Assembly (NCBI GenBank): GCA_035221665.1
Contig: CM069137.1
Location: 76,818,001 to 76,882,000 of the forward strand
Direction of reading: 5' to 3'
Length of the DNA: 64,000 nucleotides
Origin: Okamejei kenojei
Taxonomy: Eukaryota
The position numbers and the translations under genes are program-made. Positions 2,738-60,055 of this stretch are shown here, one piece after another; within the stretch, counting starts at the first letter, position 1, and each line of letters begins with the position of its first letter. The notes below the pieces were generated by a model that was given only the letters and a program-made list of their open reading frames with translations, was not told the DNA's origin and did no database searches.

Positions 2738-3225
2738 CTTTGGATGAAAAATACATTTTATATCTCTTAGCTTCAGGGGAACAGTCCCTTTAATTTTGTT
2801 TTCAGCAGACTACAATTATCTACATGAACAAACTGAATTTAAACCCTATAGTGCATATTCCATAACCTGCAAAACAAAACAACCAGCAGCAAGTCTGAAG
2901 CACATCAGAGTTATTATCATTGTTACTTTAAGGCCGTGCCTAAAATAACACCAGAAATGGTTAAATAACTGTGACCAGCTTCTGACTGCCATTTTCAAAA
3001 ATGCAGGCCTAGTATATATGTGACTTCCATATGCAAACCTGCAACTTTAAACACAAAAATATTGGTTGGTTTTAGGTGGGAGGCTTGCAGTTGTTCATTA
3101 AGTTCAGGTCACTATGAATATTCATTAGTAAAAGGCAAACATAATGTTGGGAAACCTTAAGTATCAAGTGCAGTTTTTCTTGACTAGTAACAGTAATGAT
3201 GAATTAACGTTAATCACATATCTAC
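2738..3225 (-). promoter_or_regulatory. Candidate Cronos internal promoter, 5'UTR and start codon (ATG 2756-2754)
   Basis: In-frame aaaATG giving MYFSSKARVIS...; GATA sites, E-box and MEF2-like AT elements; intron position matches human intron 239 by exon counting. Confidence 0.6.
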
Positions 3226-7730: not shown

Positions 7731-10353
7731 TTACTTTATATTACAAAGCCGGAAATTAGTATTCCTAACTGATTAGATTTAATAACTCAATTTGGATTGA
7801 TTTCAGGATATAGAATTAATTGGAATAAAAGTGAACATGCCAATAATGGGAAATAACTCACATATATTACAACAATATCCTTTTAAGATAGCCAATGAAA
7901 AAATAAAATATCTTGGAATTAATGTAACAAAAAGATATGATTCTTTATTTAAATCTAATTTCCCACCCCTATTGAATAAACTACTTAAGAATATCCTATA
8001 TTGGAAAACATTGCCTATTTCAATGCTAGGTAGAATTAATGCGATAAAAATGATTTTTCTTCCTCAATTATTATACCTGTTTCAACTGATCCCGATATAT
8101 CTTCCTAAAAAATGTTTTAAGAAAGTGGACTCTATAGTTACCAACTTTATTTGGAATTATAAGAGCCATAGAATAAATTAAAAATATCTATGTAAATCAA
8201 AAATGAATGGAGGTTTTGCATTGCCTAATTTTATGTTTTATTATTGGGCATTTAAACATAGAAACATAGAAATTTAGAAATTAGGTGCAGGAGTAGGCCA
8301 TTCAGCCCTTCGAGCCTGCACCGCCATTCAATATGATCATGGCTGATCATCCAACTCAGTATCCCGTACCTGCCTTCTCTCCATACCCTCTGATCCCCTT
8401 AGCCACAAGGGCCACATCCAACTCACTCTTAAATATAGCCAATGAACTGGCCTCAACTACCCTCTGTGGCAGAGAGTTCCAGAGACTCACCACTCTCTGT
8501 GTGAAAAAAGTCTTTCTCATCTCGGTCTTAAAGGATTTCCCCCTTATCCTTAAGCTGTGACCCCTTGTCCTGGACTTCCCCAACATCGGGAACAATCTTC
8601 CTGCATCTAGCCTGTCCAACCCCTTAAGAATTTTGTAAGTTTCTATAAGATCCCCTCTCAATCTCCTAAATTCCAGAGAGTATAAACCAAGTCTATCCAG
8701 TCTTTCTTCATAAGACAGTCCTGACATCCCAGGAATCAGTCTGGTGAACCTTCTCTGCACTCCCTCTATGGCAATAATGTCCTTCCTCAGATTTGGAGAC
8801 CAAAACTGTACGCAATACTCCAGGTGTGGTCTCACCAAGACCCTGTACAACTGAAGTAGAACCTCCCTGCTCCTGTACTCAAATCCTTTTGCTATGAAAG
8901 CTAACATACCATTCGCTTTTTTCACTGCCTGCTGCACCTGCATGCCTACTTTCAATGACTAGTGTACCATGACACCCAGGTCTCGCTGCATCTCCCCTTT
9001 TCCTAATCGGCCACCATTTAAATAATAGTCTGCTTTCCTGTTTTTGCCACCAAAGTGGATTTAATATTAAAAATATGAATTTTTGGTTGGAAGAAGTAGA
9101 TAAACAACCAAACTGGTTCAAAATGGAAAAGGATGATTGTTCACCTTTTGAAATTAGCTCGATTTTATTTGCTAATACTAAAATACATTAAAAAAGTTAT
9201 AGAGGAAATCCAATAATAGAAAGTGGCATACGTATTTGGAAACGATTAAATAAAACATTAAAATTAGAAAGTATACCACTGGCTCTTCCCATTGCAAATA
9301 ACAGCACTTTTAAACCTTCAATGATGGATAAAGGTTTTTTAAAATGGAAGAACTATGGAATAAATAAGATGGGTGATCACTACAGGGAAAGTTTATTCCT
9401 TTCATTTCAGGAATTACAACAAAATTATGGATTACGCTCAAAAGAATACTTTAGATATTTACAAATTAGAGCCTATGTTAAATCAAACACACAGGATTTT
9501 AGAAATAGAAAGACAGAACTTTTAGATGAATGTCTAAATAAATATCCGAATACAGAAAATTAATCATATATTTATAATATTTTACTGGAAAATGATTTAC
9601 CAAACTCGGAAATATATAGGCAAGCATGGGAAAACGAATTAGGACAAACAATTAGTGTAGAGGTATGGAATGAAAGTTTACAACATATACACCACTGCTC
9701 ATTAAATGCCAGACACTCCCTGATACAATTTAAAGTTTTACATAGATTACACTTTTCGAAATCCAAATTAAACAGAATTTTTTTCAAATGTTTCTGCTAT
9801 ATGTGATAAATGTCAGCATTTAGAAGCTAATCTAACGCATTCATTCTCAAAATTGTATAAAAATTACTAATTTTTGGATAGAAATTTTTAACATAATCTC
9901 GAAAGTAGTTAATGCATATCTGACTCCAGACTCAAAATTAATCATATTAGGAATAATAGAAACGGATCATCTACTAACAACACAGCAAATAATTTTTATT
10001 GGTTATAGTTTAATAATTGGTAAAAAAACTAATACTAAGATTTTGGAAAGGTCCTACATCCCCCACAATCAAAATGTGGATTACAGAAATGTCGGAGACA
10101 CTTCACCTGGAAAGACTAAGACTTGTCCTTTTGGACAAGCTAGATCAATTCAGAGGAATATGGTCTCCATTTATTGAATACTTAAAGGGTCAAGGAGGTC
10201 CGGTTCGAGGGCCTGACTGAAGCCTGAATAAAGGAATAGATGAAGAACTATATACAAAAGACCAAATATGTTTTTTCTTTTTTGATTGTATGTTATTCCT
10301 TTTTAATATGTATTTACTTCTAATAAAAATATTTTACATAAACAAAAAAAAAA
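7731..10353 (+). mobile_element. 5'-truncated L1/Tx1-clade LINE
   Basis: IKYLGI, WKTLPISMLGRINAIKMIFLPQLLY, CDKC zinc knuckle; AATAAA plus A-tail; TSD caaatttgaggta. Confidence 0.92.
8256..9058 (-). mobile_element. Young CR1 nested inside the L1
   Basis: Intact 199-aa ORF2 C-terminus, (ttctatgt)n tail, atttaa on both flanks. Confidence 0.93.
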
Positions 10354-15880: not shown

Positions 15881-16521
15881 CTGTAGTGAAATAGTAACAT
15901 AATTATCAGTGCATCATTACTGTCTCACAAGTCAATAATTGTAAAGTTTTTTTCATAATTAAGGGGTAAAATGATGAGGCTAAAAAAGTGTATTGCACTT
16001 AAATGCAAAATATATCATATATAATATATTACATATATTACGTATGAAATTATAAATGCCACACAAAAAATAATAAAAAATGATACTTTCATTTTTTTAA
16101 TATACTAAACGGAGGTGTATTCATGCAACCAGAGGAGAATTAACATGAAAAATATGTATTTGGTTAGAATGGGAGAAATATAAAACCATATGATTTGAAT
16201 GGTAATCGGTCTTTGCCTTACGAAATATAATGAAATGATTTAATTAATTCATAATCCTGTTAATAGCAACATTAAAGCAATTTAAGACAATTTATCCTTG
16301 GGAGCCATCAGACCATGTGGACAAAACATAAGCCACAGACATGAATTTACATTTAACACGACAGCCACAATACATCATGCACATAAACACAACTCGCATT
16401 GCCAGGAGAAACAACTACGTTTAACAAAGATGAACACACACAACATAAAGGAACATTTATCCATTTTTCAAAGCACAAGATATGAAAAATCAGTTTGGTA
16501 GGTGTGCAGCAGTCCTCTCAC

Positions 16522-18816
16522 CTCGGCGTCTGTAAGGCTTTGAAGGAGTCTCAACTGCACCTTCATGCAATTCTTCATCATCTTCATACTCCCAATCAGC
16601 TGATGAGCCACCTTCCTCCTCTTCAGTTAATTCCCATTCCCAGTCTTCTTTGCCCTGTAATTCTTCTATTGACATTTCTTCTGATTCTATTTCATAGTCT
16701 TCTGATGATGATATTCTCTCAGACGGAAGTTTTTTCATCTGTACTATCTCCTGCTCTTTATCTGTAGGACTCTCTTTGTCAACTTTAAGATGTGCGGCAT
16801 CTCTGGGAGTGAATATTTTCTTTACAGGAATTTGCTGTGGCTTTTCTTCAGCTGCAACTTCCCTTGAGGGAACCTTCTTCAATTCTAGATGATCTTTTTG
16901 ATCTTCCAAAACTGGAGTTTTTCTCTTTCCAGTTTTATATTGTACTGTATCAGACAAATCCCTGGGAGTCAGTACTTTCATCATTGGTATTTTGTGTTGC
17001 TTTTCTTCCACAGCAACACCTTTTGAAGATACCTTCTTAATTTCAATATGATCTTTCTCAGCTTCTGGTACTGGAGTTTTTCCCTTTCCAGATTTATAAT
17101 GTACTGTATCTGACAAATCCCTGGGAGTCAGTATTTTCTTGATTGGTATTTGATGTGTTTTTTCTTCTGCGGCAGCTTCTCTTGAGGAAACCTTTTTAAA
17201 TTCTATATGATCTTGATCTTTCAAAACGGGAATTCTTTCCTTTCCAGTTTTATAATGTATACTATCAGACGTATCTCTGGGTGTCAGTACTTTCTTCATT
17301 GGTATTTTCTGTGGCTTTTCTTCCACAGCAACACCTTTTGAAGAGATCTTTATTTCAATATGATCTTTCTCTGCTTCTGACACTGGGACATTTTCCTTTC
17401 CAGTTTTAAGGTGTGGAATATCAGGTGTATCTCTTGGGGTCAATACTTTCCTCACAGGTTTTTTCTGTAACTTTTCTTCGACCACAATTTTTTTTGATGG
17501 GACTTTCTTCACCTCTGCACGATCCTGCAGTTCCTCTGGTTCCTGTAAAACTGTTTTTTTATTTTTGTCAATTTTAGTATCTGCGATTGATTGTTCATCT
17601 TTAGAATCTGCTGTAAGCTTTTTTGTCGATTTGTCAATCTTTTGTGGTTCTTTTTCACCTACTGATTTTCCTCTTGAGCGAATATCTTTCAGGTGAACCA
17701 TTTCTTGTTCTTCTTTTGTAATAGGAAATTTCCCTTCACTAATTCTTAAAGGAATTTCATCCTCTTTTTCTTCACAGGGAAATGTCTTAGGAACACCAAT
17801 TTCTTCTGCAGTGAATTCAGGTACTCGTTTTGATGCAGGTGTTTCTAAAACGATCTCCCTAGGTACTCCCTCAATTGGATAAAAATCTATATTTTTCAAT
17901 ATTTCTTTTTTAGGAGATGGTTCACTTCTTATTTTGGGAATACCAATTTTAGTGAGATTAGGTGTTTCTGTTTTCTCCCCAACAGGCTGAGGAAGTGTTC
18001 TACTTATTTTCAATTTCTCATGCTTTTCTTCTTCTTCCTTTTCTACAAATAATTTACTAGGCTTTGTCAATGGTGGGGTCCTCTCCTTCTCTGTATCAGG
18101 AACTTCAGCCTGCCTTATTAATTTTTTCCCTCTATCTCCTATCTTTACAGAAGCTGCTTCCGATCTAGTTACAAACATGGATTTCTCTTCATTTTTTCCA
18201 GCTTTAGGAACATCAACCTTTTCCAGAATCATTTGTTCGTCTGTATCTTTTTCATCAATACATATTTCATTAAGTTTCTTTGACACACCATGTTTTTCTT
18301 TTAAAGCTTCTTTTTTAGGGGTTATCTCAAACTTTTTGAATTGTACCTTATCTGCTTCTTCCTTTTGTCTGGAAACATAATCGAGTTTCTTAGATTGTGC
18401 AACTGGTTCTTTATCCACTTCCTTGAGTGCTACCTTACTCATTATTTTTGGTAATATTTTCAAAGCTTCATCTTTTACAATGGAGATTTCCCCTTTATCT
18501 TTGTCTATTTTATGAATCTCATCAACCACCTGTACAACTACTTCTCTTTTTATTTCTATCTCTTGCAAAATGATACCTGTTGTTTTTGGCAAGGTATAAC
18601 ATTCATCAGCTTCAATTTCTTTAGGACTTTCAGTAGATCTCCTGAGTTTTAATCCTACGTCTTTGTCATCTTCTTTATGAAATCTTGCTTCTTCATCTTT
18701 CTCTTTCTCTGGAATCTTACTACGTTTCTTCAAAATTGAAATTTCTCTTTCTTCTATTTCTTTTGGAATATGCACTGCAGGTTTTAGTTTCAAAGATGAC
18801 TTGGGTTGTTCTGCGG
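16522..18816 (-). CDS. TTN: Titin giant PEVK-like exon (2295 nt, 765 codons)
   Basis: Uninterrupted E/K/P/V-rich ORF bounded by phase-1 tag| and G|gtgag; an alternative in-frame acceptor lies 6 nt inside. Confidence 0.85.
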
Positions 18817-19179
18817 CTACAAAGGTTTCATATTCAATTTAGTGACAAATTAACAAAGAATTTTGCAATCTCCTAAAAGAAGTCTAACATCAAAACAGTC
18901 TCCAAACCACACTGGTTCACCAAATTAAAACAGACCATGAAATCTCTCCATAGTCAACAACATTTCAAAATGAACACATTAACAGAAAGAATCACAAGAC
19001 AAGTTACATAAATTGTAACTACTTAAATGGACTGAAGAGACAATTTGATACAACTAGTACACAACATTTAGGATCCAGGGGAAATCTATATAATTTTAGT
19101 TTTACACACAAAATTGAACAAAGATTGAATATGTTGAATATTTTTAAGTTTAAATACAATAAGGTTTGAGAAATTGTAC

Positions 19180-28695: not shown

Positions 28696-29300
28696 AAACA
28701 TAGAAACATAGAAATTAGGTGCAGGAGTAGGCCATTCAGCCCTTCGAGCCTGCACCGCCATTCAATATGATCATGGCTGATCATCCAACTCAGTATCCCG
28801 TACCTGCCTTCTCTCCATACCCTCTGATCCCCTTAGCCACAAGGGCCACATCCAACTCACTCTTAAATATAGCCAATGAACTGGCCTCAACTACCCTCTG
28901 TGGCAGAGAGTTCCAGAGACTCACCACTCTCTGTGTGAAGAAAGTCTTTCTCATCTCGGTCTTAAAGGATTTCCCCCTTATCCTTAAGCTGTGACCCCTT
29001 GTCCTGGACTTCCCCAACATCGGGAACAATCTTCCTGCATCTAGCCTGTCCAACCCCTTAAGAATTTTGTAAGTTTCTATAAGATCCCCTCTTAATCTCC
29101 TAAATTCCAGAGAGTATAAACCGAGTCTATCCAGTCTTTCTTCATAAGACAGTCCTGACATCCCAGGAATCAGTCTGGTGAACCTTCTCTGCACTCCCTC
29201 TATGGCAATAATGTCCTTCCTCAGATTTGGGCAATAATGTCCTTCCTCAGATTTGGGGCAATAATGTCCTTCCTCAGATTTGGGCAATAATGTCCTTCCT
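28696..29300 (-). mobile_element. Young 5'-truncated CR1
   Basis: Nearly identical to 8256-8795; ctctt on both flanks; empty site at about 35980. Confidence 0.93.
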
Positions 29301-29966
29301 CTTCTCCTGTACTGGAGAGAGGAACTGACTAACCGAGAATGAGTGCACAGAAAATGTAACATTATTAATCTATGCTTTCATTACTTTACAGGCAACAGAT
29401 TAAACGTCAAAAACCAGTGAAACCCCCATGGAAATGCCAATGCTGACCGCACTACCAGAATTGTGAGATGTTTTCTGAATCTCTGGATTCCAGTATTCTG
29501 GAAAATGCCATATTCATAACTGTTTAGAGGCAAGGTCACCTTGACTACAAAATCATGGTTGTCTTTGCCCCAATTTGTGGTGGAAATTTTGCTTACATCT
29601 GGCCTGTTACCTGGAGGTAAAGTTCCATGGTTAGAGGGAAATGGGAAGAAATGGTTTCCTTTATTTCAAGTTATAAAGTATTAACGCGAGCATGATGTTG
29701 CTTAAGTAACAAAAACAGCTCGATAAATCATTTTGGTTAAATTGTGATTGCTACTAAAAATACTATTTATTCTTTATGCCAAGATCAAATGATGTTTTAT
29801 GTTTACTATTTGAATGAAATCGGTGAAGCTATATAGGCATCCAGTCAATGTCAACAATGATCAATCTGAGTTATTTTTGTAAATTCTCTGATGATAGGAT
29901 ATGTTATAATCAGCCAATGGAATAATCCAAAACTTATTTTCCTACCATGTCTCCAGCCCTTCGAAA

Positions 29967-57680: not shown

Positions 57681-57931
57681 TCAAAATAAGCCATGTTTTG
57701 TTCTATATAACCAATCATAATGCAAGTATCAAATTTATTTTGTGGGCAAGGCCAACAAAATATAGCACAAATACAGAAATAAAATTGGAAAACAGCACAA
57801 ACTGGAAAAAAAAACAAATAGGAAGGTATTGGTTATCTGAAAAGTTTAAAACAAAAATATTTTTCAAGATAATGATCTGATGTTTCTCCAAAGAAACAAT
57901 ACACGTATAAAATGTATGTCTTCTTTTGTAC

Positions 57932-58576
57932 CTTTCAATGGTGCAGTTGTTTCTCTCCGTGTAACTGGTTTCGCTTCTTCAGGAATAAACTCAGGAGGAG
58001 CAATTGCTTTTTTCCGTATAACTGGTTTCACTTCTTCAGGAATAAACTCAGGAGGAGCAATTGCTTCTCTCCGTATAACTGGTTTCACTTCTTCAGGAAT
58101 AAACTCAGGAGGAGCAATTGCTTTTTTCCGTATAACTGGTTTCACTTCTTCAGGAATAAACTCAGGAGGAGCAATTGCTTTTTTCCGTATAACTGGTTTC
58201 ACTTCTTCAGGAATAAACTCAGGAGGAGCAATTGCTTTTTTCCGTATAACTGGTTTCACTTCTTCAGGAATAAACTCAGGAGGAGCAATTGCTTTTTTCC
58301 GTGTAACTGGTTTAGCTTCTTCAGGAATAAACTCAGGAGGAGCAATTGCTTTTTTCCGTGTAACTGGTTTAGCTTCTTCAGGAATAAACTCAGGAGGAGC
58401 AATTGCTTTTTCCCGTGTAACTGGTTTCACTTCTTCAGGAACAAACTCAGGAGGAGCAATTGCTTTTTTCCGTATAACTGGTTTAGCTTCTTCAGGAATG
58501 AACTCAGGAGGAGCAATTGTTTTTTTCCGTGTAACTGGTTCAGCTTCTTCAGGTACATACTCGGGAATCTCAGGCA
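57932..58576 (-). CDS. TTN: Titin PEVK exon with internal 57-bp x11 coding minisatellite
   Basis: 645 nt = 75 + 10x57; unit PEFIPEEVKPVIRKKAIAP. Confidence 0.88.
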
Positions 58577-60055
58577 CTTTAAGAATTTTGGACAAAAGAA
58601 TGTGAAAGATGTAGAATGTTTGAATACGGCAATACACATAACATTAAACACAATGGAGTCACAAATACTTGACACAGTTTACCATTTCATGTTAATCGCA
58701 TAATAATCTAATCTTCTCAATCATTCGATGTTATATATAGATATATCTATCTTACAATGCGTCGTAGATTAAAAGAGCACCAAATACCAAAATTTAGGGA
58801 TATTTTAAATTTCGGCTATCAAGCCATTTGTATCTTTTTAATTCAAATCTCCTCTCCACGTTTTCCAATTCTTCTGGTTGTACTATCTAATTTTATTATG
58901 AACAGTACTCAAATCACCATGTACAGCTATGGGTGTTTTTAGAATCACTTTCCAATAAATCTATCTTGTAAGATCATCATACTTTTAGGATGATATTATG
59001 TTTATGACTGGATATCCTATGCATGCTAGAAGAGTGAAAGCATACCTTCTTGCTAACATTTAACATTTATTTTCAAAATATATTTACAAATGGTAATTCT
59101 GCAGTATTAAAGCTTTCAGGTTTAATATAAAGTGTCACAGAGTGATGGGTATACTCAGATAATTTCCAGGGCATGAAATATCAGAATATTTACATTAATG
59201 TTATTTTTCAAAAATGTAACAGTTTATTAATTTCTACTAGACCAATAATCACATCCATATATTGTCATGTGCATGTATGCTTTGCTAAATGTTTCTAATA
59301 TGCAACTGAATTATTCTTACATTATAAATATTACCATGTGCCACGAGGAAGGAATCATTGTAGAGCAGTCCATTGACCTGATCATCCTGGCATCTACTGA
59401 CTTTATATTTCTTGCTTTGCTATGAGATTGCAGGAGGATGTTATTTCTAGGGGATATTTCCTACCTGAGATTAACTTTTACGAGTATTGTTTAATTTCCC
59501 AGTCATGCTACATTGCATAGGAAATGCCTAATAATGCACTAAATGCATTGAAGGAATTAGTTAATGCAAATTCCAAATAATAGGTCCTTCCATACCTGTC
59601 ATAGTATCTCTGTACTTACAATTTGAATTGTTTCTGTAAAGTGCCAAATATCTGTAAAATTACAGTGAAGGCAATAAAATATCAACCCAAGTTAACCGAT
59701 ATGTAATGTATGAACCCTTTAAATAGTTAAGGTTGGTTTGCGAAAAGTGAGATCCATCTCCTGCTGATTCGCACAGTTTGTGTCACTGGAGTTTGAGATA
59801 TATTAAACTGAAGAAATTAGCTCATAAATAACAGTATAGTTGACAAACAACATCTTACACTAACTTACATAATGAGATGCCCACTGGGCATAAATTTTCC
59901 TTGTAGTTGGTGCTTTATTGTCAATATAATTAAACTGATACAGATGCACAAACAAAGAACGAAACAACATATTGTAAAACAAAATTAATAAATAGCAGAG
60001 CACTGACAATTTGAGGGCTCTAAAAGAGAACAAATGTTTCTACGGTAATGAGAAG

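Follow-up and report, generated by a model that had tools for sequence, protein, structure and literature searches.

A candidate Cronos start at the 3' end of a titin intron in the cartilaginous fish Okamejei kenojei

The stretch of Okamejei kenojei DNA analysed here, 64,000 nucleotides long and referred to below as the window, carries on its minus strand the portion of a titin gene that encodes PEVK and distal I-band. With fish titins as reference, 21 consecutive Ig-region exons were mapped, exon numbers being labels anchored on exon 240; 18 of their acceptors lie in the window and 3 just beyond it. Two of 20 neighbouring stretches entered the exon map, and all 20 entered the repeat check. 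An uninterrupted reading frame extends from exon 225 to exon 244. Exon 4779-4513 (minus strand) is followed by a GC donor at 4512-4507, forming a GC-AG intron, and no other junction restores the conserved protein. The PEVK region contains a 782-codon, Lys/Glu-rich open frame (16493-18838, minus strand), corresponding to a very large exon, and an exon (57867-58643, minus strand) in which a 19-residue repeat recurs in tandem some twelve times; between about 32 and 37 kb, exon-intron units of the PEVK look recently duplicated. LINE remnants are numerous within introns, and two LINE-like fragments, 8359-8958 and 28793-29377, are near-identical.

The feature under study is the titin intron 3225-2738 (minus strand, GT...AAG, 488 nt), located between exons 3352-3226 and 2737-2595. 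A first-pass annotation, all coordinates of which check out, had singled it out as a candidate internal promoter for the titin isoform Cronos, and had described it as containing no recognisable transposable element. Blastn found no second match for the intron in 264 kb, the LINE control having 18 matches besides itself. Three RNA-type contig sets (X1 and X2, from one study, and X5) join the two flanking exons at the predicted splice sites, skipping exactly 488 nt, and the AAG acceptor at 2738 is thus used by the full-length titin mRNA; loose ends of these contigs run into the next exon, 311-188. No piece within the intron was found in these sets, contigs being such as to drop rare forms and unable to show starts; their silence is no argument against Cronos.

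Guide RNAs and primers published for zebrafish exons e114, e115, e116 and e117 (PMC4720518, supplement), once translated by hand, match in order the exons 3628-3489, 3352-3226, 2737-2595 and 311-188; the e113 guide, which fits two exons, was left out of the orthology test. A mouse junction primer also matches exon 2737-2595, and the human Cronos reverse primer, as given in the available part of PMC11827849, yields the CELSYE motif present in this exon. The count from the PEVK/I84 exon, by which 2595-2737 had been numbered exon 240, is right, since the published primers match four consecutive exons. By these matches, intron 3225-2738 is orthologous to intron 239 of human TTN and to the zebrafish ttna e115-e116 intron. 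Exon 2737-2595, single copy in the 2.76-Gb assembly and coding for the first half of an Ig domain in the distal I-band, is orthologous to human exon 240, mouse exon 223 and zebrafish ttna exon 116; the upstream exon corresponds to human 239 and zebrafish 115, the next one to human 241 and zebrafish 117. In exon 2737-2595, 39 of 48 residues are identical to Callorhinchus milii, with two teleost-type matches tying at 39 of 48, and one of its residues recurs, in a set of 113 homologues, only in the two records of C. milii. For exon 311-188 the figures are 35 of 41 for C. milii and 30 of 41 for a catfish. A PDB search returned no solved structure for the domain of exon 2737-2595, only other Ig domains of titin, MyBP-C and obscurin.

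Within the polypyrimidine tract of the intron lies an ATG, at 2756-2754, with an A at -3, whose position six codons before exon 2737-2595 and in frame with it was confirmed from coordinates and frame. It is the predicted Cronos start codon, and opens a six-codon leader, MYFSSK (2756-2738), which coincides with the pyrimidine tract and the AAG acceptor. An in-frame ATG by itself proves nothing, being common before these exons: one is found within 13 open codons upstream of 4 of the 21 Ig-region exons, that is, of 3 of the other 20. With pyrimidines making up 0.65 of it, the tract falls within the range of the other acceptors (0.47-0.88). The claim that this is the sole Ig-region acceptor of AAG type in the window proved correct: it is 1 of the 21 mapped, including the 3 just beyond the window, the other 20 being CAG or TAG. 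The final 5 nt of the intron are the same as the final 5 nt of the upstream exon, while the other 19 junctions tested share 0-3, so that leader and spliced protein both enter the exon via Lys-Ala. The rare AAG has likely been retained because the AAA codon would give the leader the same junction as the spliced protein, and a dual coding and splicing constraint on this acceptor, as originally suggested, is supported by the fact that AAG supplies the Lys of the leader.

Cronos transcripts of other vertebrates provide the distances with which this leader can be compared. According to the available text of Zou et al. (2015, PMC4720518), 5' RACE placed the zebrafish start 110 nt upstream of e116, with the Met 7 residues upstream of the exon, and the mouse and human starts 257 nt upstream of e223 and 256 nt upstream of e240, respectively, with the Met 12 residues upstream. 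A homologue search with the 56-residue ORF beginning at the ATG gave 41 + 45 matches, 86 overall; a Met start is located 7 codons before the exon in 56 of the 86, 12 codons before it in 21 and 11 in one, and three further homologues carry a 7-residue leader internally. The two positions, -7 and -12, are the RACE-mapped Cronos distances; the argument for a Cronos start rests on conservation of this kind. The zebrafish Cronos primer translates to MSSPES(K), the N-terminus (MSSPESK) of 8 of the 86 homologues; the leader of one homologue (P0072) agrees with the mouse Cronos primer, and the human one, in the available part of PMC11827849, has five residues in common with the leader of another (P0063).

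In a pooled set of 115 rows at at least 50% identity, from which cluster members and control matches were left out, 96 rows are of the main type with an intronic extension. All 96 show a Met within 13 codons, a presence which is built in, as protein homologues come from gene callers requiring a start codon and perhaps printing GTG or TTG as Met; the residue at -1 is Lys in 84 of them, and Ser follows the Met in 87. A control exon, 5063-4937, preceded by a chance ATG, gave a small set of 7 matches, all beginning with Met, at -7, -6 (four, near-identical), -12 and -20, so that 5 of the 7 are at -6 or -7. Because gene callers need a start codon, the protein matches count by their number, fixed position and sequence, and not by the mere occurrence of a Met. 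The top match is C. milii UniRef A0A4W3IPV7, a two-exon gene model whose N-terminus, MFSPTSK, occupies the equivalent position and whose sequence extends into the next exon. As far as this chimaera gene model goes, the ATG and leader are thus conserved at the matching position, and because the chimaera has both, they would predate the split between cartilaginous and bony fish. The search of representative sequences added 29 further homologues at at least 50% identity, none of them identifiable as lamprey or hagfish.

A comparison free of the start-codon bias of gene callers was provided by DNA. Scanning of metagenomes resulted in 90 pattern matches, 2 of which are titin loci, L022 and L023, both of teleost type by sequence; comparison over the full length of the intron relies on a single bony-fish intron, that of L022 (1,976 nt). 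Aligned over their last 40 nt, with a match that covers the last 24, the two introns score 26, a value attained in 0 of 1000 shuffles and the highest among the 21 mapped acceptors (next 20). ATG falls on ATG; a 3-nt gap between ATG and exon keeps the frame, accounting for leaders of 6 and 7 codons, and immediately 5' of the ATG there is a gap of 1 nt. For the rest, the intron alignment gave nothing above chance: the whole intron scores 22 against L022, for a shuffle mean of 22, the score of the last 500 nt is reached by 414 of 1000 shuffles, and 10-mers common to the two introns are 2, with 2.07 expected. Three scoring schemes were used, and with one of them 9-12 of 500 shuffles did as well, though for a region that is not collinear.

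The other locus, L023, belongs to a second titin type, likely ttnb/ttn.1, as the published primers show that it is not ttna. It has an ATG 7 codons upstream of the same exon; its alignment with the window is not significant (74/1000). Proteins of this second type have a Met within 13 codons in 10 of 13 cases. An in-frame ATG followed by a Ser-rich leader, with a CAG acceptor, was observed in L023 (93-114) and in P0196, P0203, P0208, P0209, P0212, P0222 and P0225.

DNA of a relative (X9) is also available for the intron. The leader differs there by one synonymous change and a Tyr to Ser replacement, and the ATG, which is not among the differences listed, is presumably unchanged. Substitutions are 17 in the 488 nt of this intron and 9 in the 295 nt of the next one, densities too close for the comparison to be informative. 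At 2904 one X9 contig ceases to follow the window and continues with 42 letters unrelated to it, and a second contig starts at 2901, possibly because of an insertion.

Promoter motifs were counted in the intron and in 1000 dinucleotide shuffles of it, using nine patterns. All the motifs proposed as evidence for a promoter are present at the positions indicated, yet most of them occur at chance level: WGATAR is found twice (2914-2919 and 2816-2821; 1.2 expected, P 0.33), the E-box three times (2.8 expected, P 0.54), including CAGTTG at 3088-3093, and TTTAAA twice (0.8 expected, P 0.18). The E-box at 3088-3093 reads CAGCTG in X9. A loose Inr pattern, one of the nine tested, occurs 11 times, with 6.5 expected (P 0.035). 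A TATA box and its initiator are usually spaced by about 30 nt. TTTAAA and TCAGTT (2843-2831) cannot play these roles for one start, because they are 1 nt apart. MEF2 binds the consensus YTAWWWWTAR, i.e. YTA(A/T)4TAR. No exact MEF2 site is found in the intron, and two 10-mers earlier called MEF2-like (2940-2949 and 2960-2969), with 2 and 4 mismatches to the consensus, do not qualify as binding sites.

The exception is the first of these 10-mers, GTTATTTTAG, one A/T short of the consensus, which is followed by GCCTTA (2949-2929, minus strand) and may be regarded as a candidate promoter element. The same 10-mer and hexamer are found at -212 here and at -317 in L022, as an exact match; the 10-mer turns up in a shuffled whole intron with P about 0.006, and in 0 of 3000 cases when only the last 500 nt are shuffled. 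As several motifs had been named and one species was compared, this is a lead and not a result. The shared 10-mer is the one that the first-pass annotation had named beforehand; the other two words from it that were checked (2960-2969 and 2831-2843) are absent from L022. Over 2949-2929, X9 has a single A>T substitution and 2 inserted nucleotides.

Other candidate signals were discarded. TATAAAA at 2762-2756 was rejected as a promoter for the ATG at 2756, since the start would fall within the exon. A likeness of the zebrafish probe primer to 2825-2810, noticed by eye and unscored, was dropped; X9 has an 8-nt insertion there, at 2813. A sigma-70 promoter scan is irrelevant for a vertebrate, and the hairpin reported at 2775-2790 carries two changes in X9. 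The motif scan also identified an acceptor-like, T-rich stretch ending in CAG (2890-2867), after which an exon would begin at 2866, 129 nt upstream of the true acceptor; a full-length mRNA using it would hit an in-frame stop at 2822-2820.

Three other explanations of the intron end were considered. The ATG and leader might be homologous to the Cronos start and nevertheless silent in this species, with the intron end conserved for nothing but its branch point, its pyrimidine tract and its acceptor. Such a reading agrees with RNA-type contigs in which only the spliced full-length form is seen, contigs being unable to show starts, with promoter motifs at chance level, with the position of the leader, wholly inside the splice signal, and with CTAAC, a branch-point-like word, directly adjoining the ATG in L022. 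Splicing alone, however, favours neither an AAG, with CAG or TAG at 20 of the 21 acceptors, nor an ATG, nor a gap of 3 nt that keeps the frame, and the ATG persists in the chimaera, in this species and, by inference, in X9; we regard silence as rather improbable.

Considerably less probable is that a Cronos-type isoform derives from a promoter further upstream, whose non-coding first exon would splice to 2866, leaving the 3' part of the intron as 5' UTR only. The acceptor-like stretch with its CAG before 2866 would serve this purpose, and a similar T-rich word ending in CAG exists in L022. Still, the pyrimidine fraction of the stretch, 0.71, equals that of two other AG sites in the intron, the match in L022 scores no higher than shuffles and lies out of collinear order, three ATGs (2863, 2856 and 2825) would come before the Cronos one, and the published Cronos starts are intronic and unspliced, according to the available text of PMC4720518. 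Least credible of the three is that the ATG has nothing to do with Cronos and fell in frame by chance, the intron being AT-rich: 3 of the other 20 acceptors do have such a triplet, and the control exon indicates that gene-caller matches always begin with Met, but the intron is orthologous, the positions fit those mapped by RACE, and chance is largely refuted by the DNA alignment of the intron end (0/1000 shuffles) together with the chimaera leader (P0001).

The presence at the intron end of an in-frame ATG and a six-residue leader homologous to the Cronos titin start of bony vertebrates is thus largely supported, and the candidate start combines the three features tested, namely intron location, in-frame Met and homologous leader. 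It seems quite probable that Cronos is made from intron 3225-2738 in this lineage, with the intron acting as internal promoter and providing the 5' UTR. By analogy with zebrafish, mouse and human, as described in the available text of PMC4720518, transcription from a muscle promoter within the intron would begin about 90-260 nt upstream of the exon, with the GTTATTTTAG element at -212 as a candidate upstream element. A transcription start downstream of 2825 would make the ATG at 2756 the first AUG, and translation from it would produce a C-terminal titin comprising the distal I-band plus the A- and M-bands, devoid of Z-disc anchor and PEVK spring. The proposal that the Cronos start predates the chondrichthyan/bony fish split finds support for the ATG and leader, which are common to chimaera and bony fish, and the isoform itself likely dates to the first jawed vertebrates. 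We put forward more tentatively, as somewhat less than an even chance, a wider hypothesis, in which Cronos is an ancestral jawed-vertebrate isoform, transcribed from this intron in sharks, rays and chimaeras and driven by a 450-million-year-old, so far undescribed GTTATTTTAG..GCCTTA element, its leader built into the splice acceptor, and in which a Cronos start is retained in the second titin gene of teleosts as well.

Cronos has been proposed as one reason why cardiomyopathy is worse when titin is truncated downstream of exon 240, and little of its regulation has been mapped; with the short 488-nt intron and the distant comparison, the search for a promoter element narrows to about 20 nt. Conservation of the start in cartilaginous fish would date Cronos to the jawed-vertebrate ancestor and argue for a basic role in sarcomere building, although the gain in age is modest, conservation from fish to mammals being already known. 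Should the second teleost titin gene really keep a Cronos start, the reading of zebrafish ttn.2 truncation mutants would change; in the parts of the literature examined, Cronos is reported for ttn.2 and not for the other teleost titin. In its available text, PMC12854356 names Cronos for zebrafish ttn.2, mouse and human only, and PMC11827849 reports that the titin intron-1 enhancer does not drive Cronos. No report of Cronos in a cartilaginous fish was found in a literature search covering papers outside subscription and a minority of supplements. Within the available text, the word does not occur in the titin-evolution paper PMC12198301 or in the elephant-shark connectin paper PMC12241362, where the internal-promoter paper appears only in the reference list, and PMC7478974 and PMC5068190 add nothing on evolution.

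Among known systems, the closest named sequence is the C. milii connectin (PMC12241362; UniRef A0A4W3IPV7), whose gene model already begins at the matching Met, and which is annotated only as 'Immunoglobulin domain-containing protein'. Mouse and human Cronos begin before the same exon (223 and 240, respectively), and their 12-residue-class leader also ends with Lys before the first residue of the exon; they differ in the length of the leader, 12 residues, and in a start located 256-257 nt upstream, as given in the available text of PMC4720518. Zebrafish ttna (ttn.2) Cronos shares with the candidate described here the same intron and exon, an in-frame ATG in the intron end and a Ser-rich leader ending in Ser-Lys. 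The leader has 7 residues in zebrafish, against 6 in the one predicted here, and both introns, the zebrafish one as read from the probe primer, end in ATCCAAAG.
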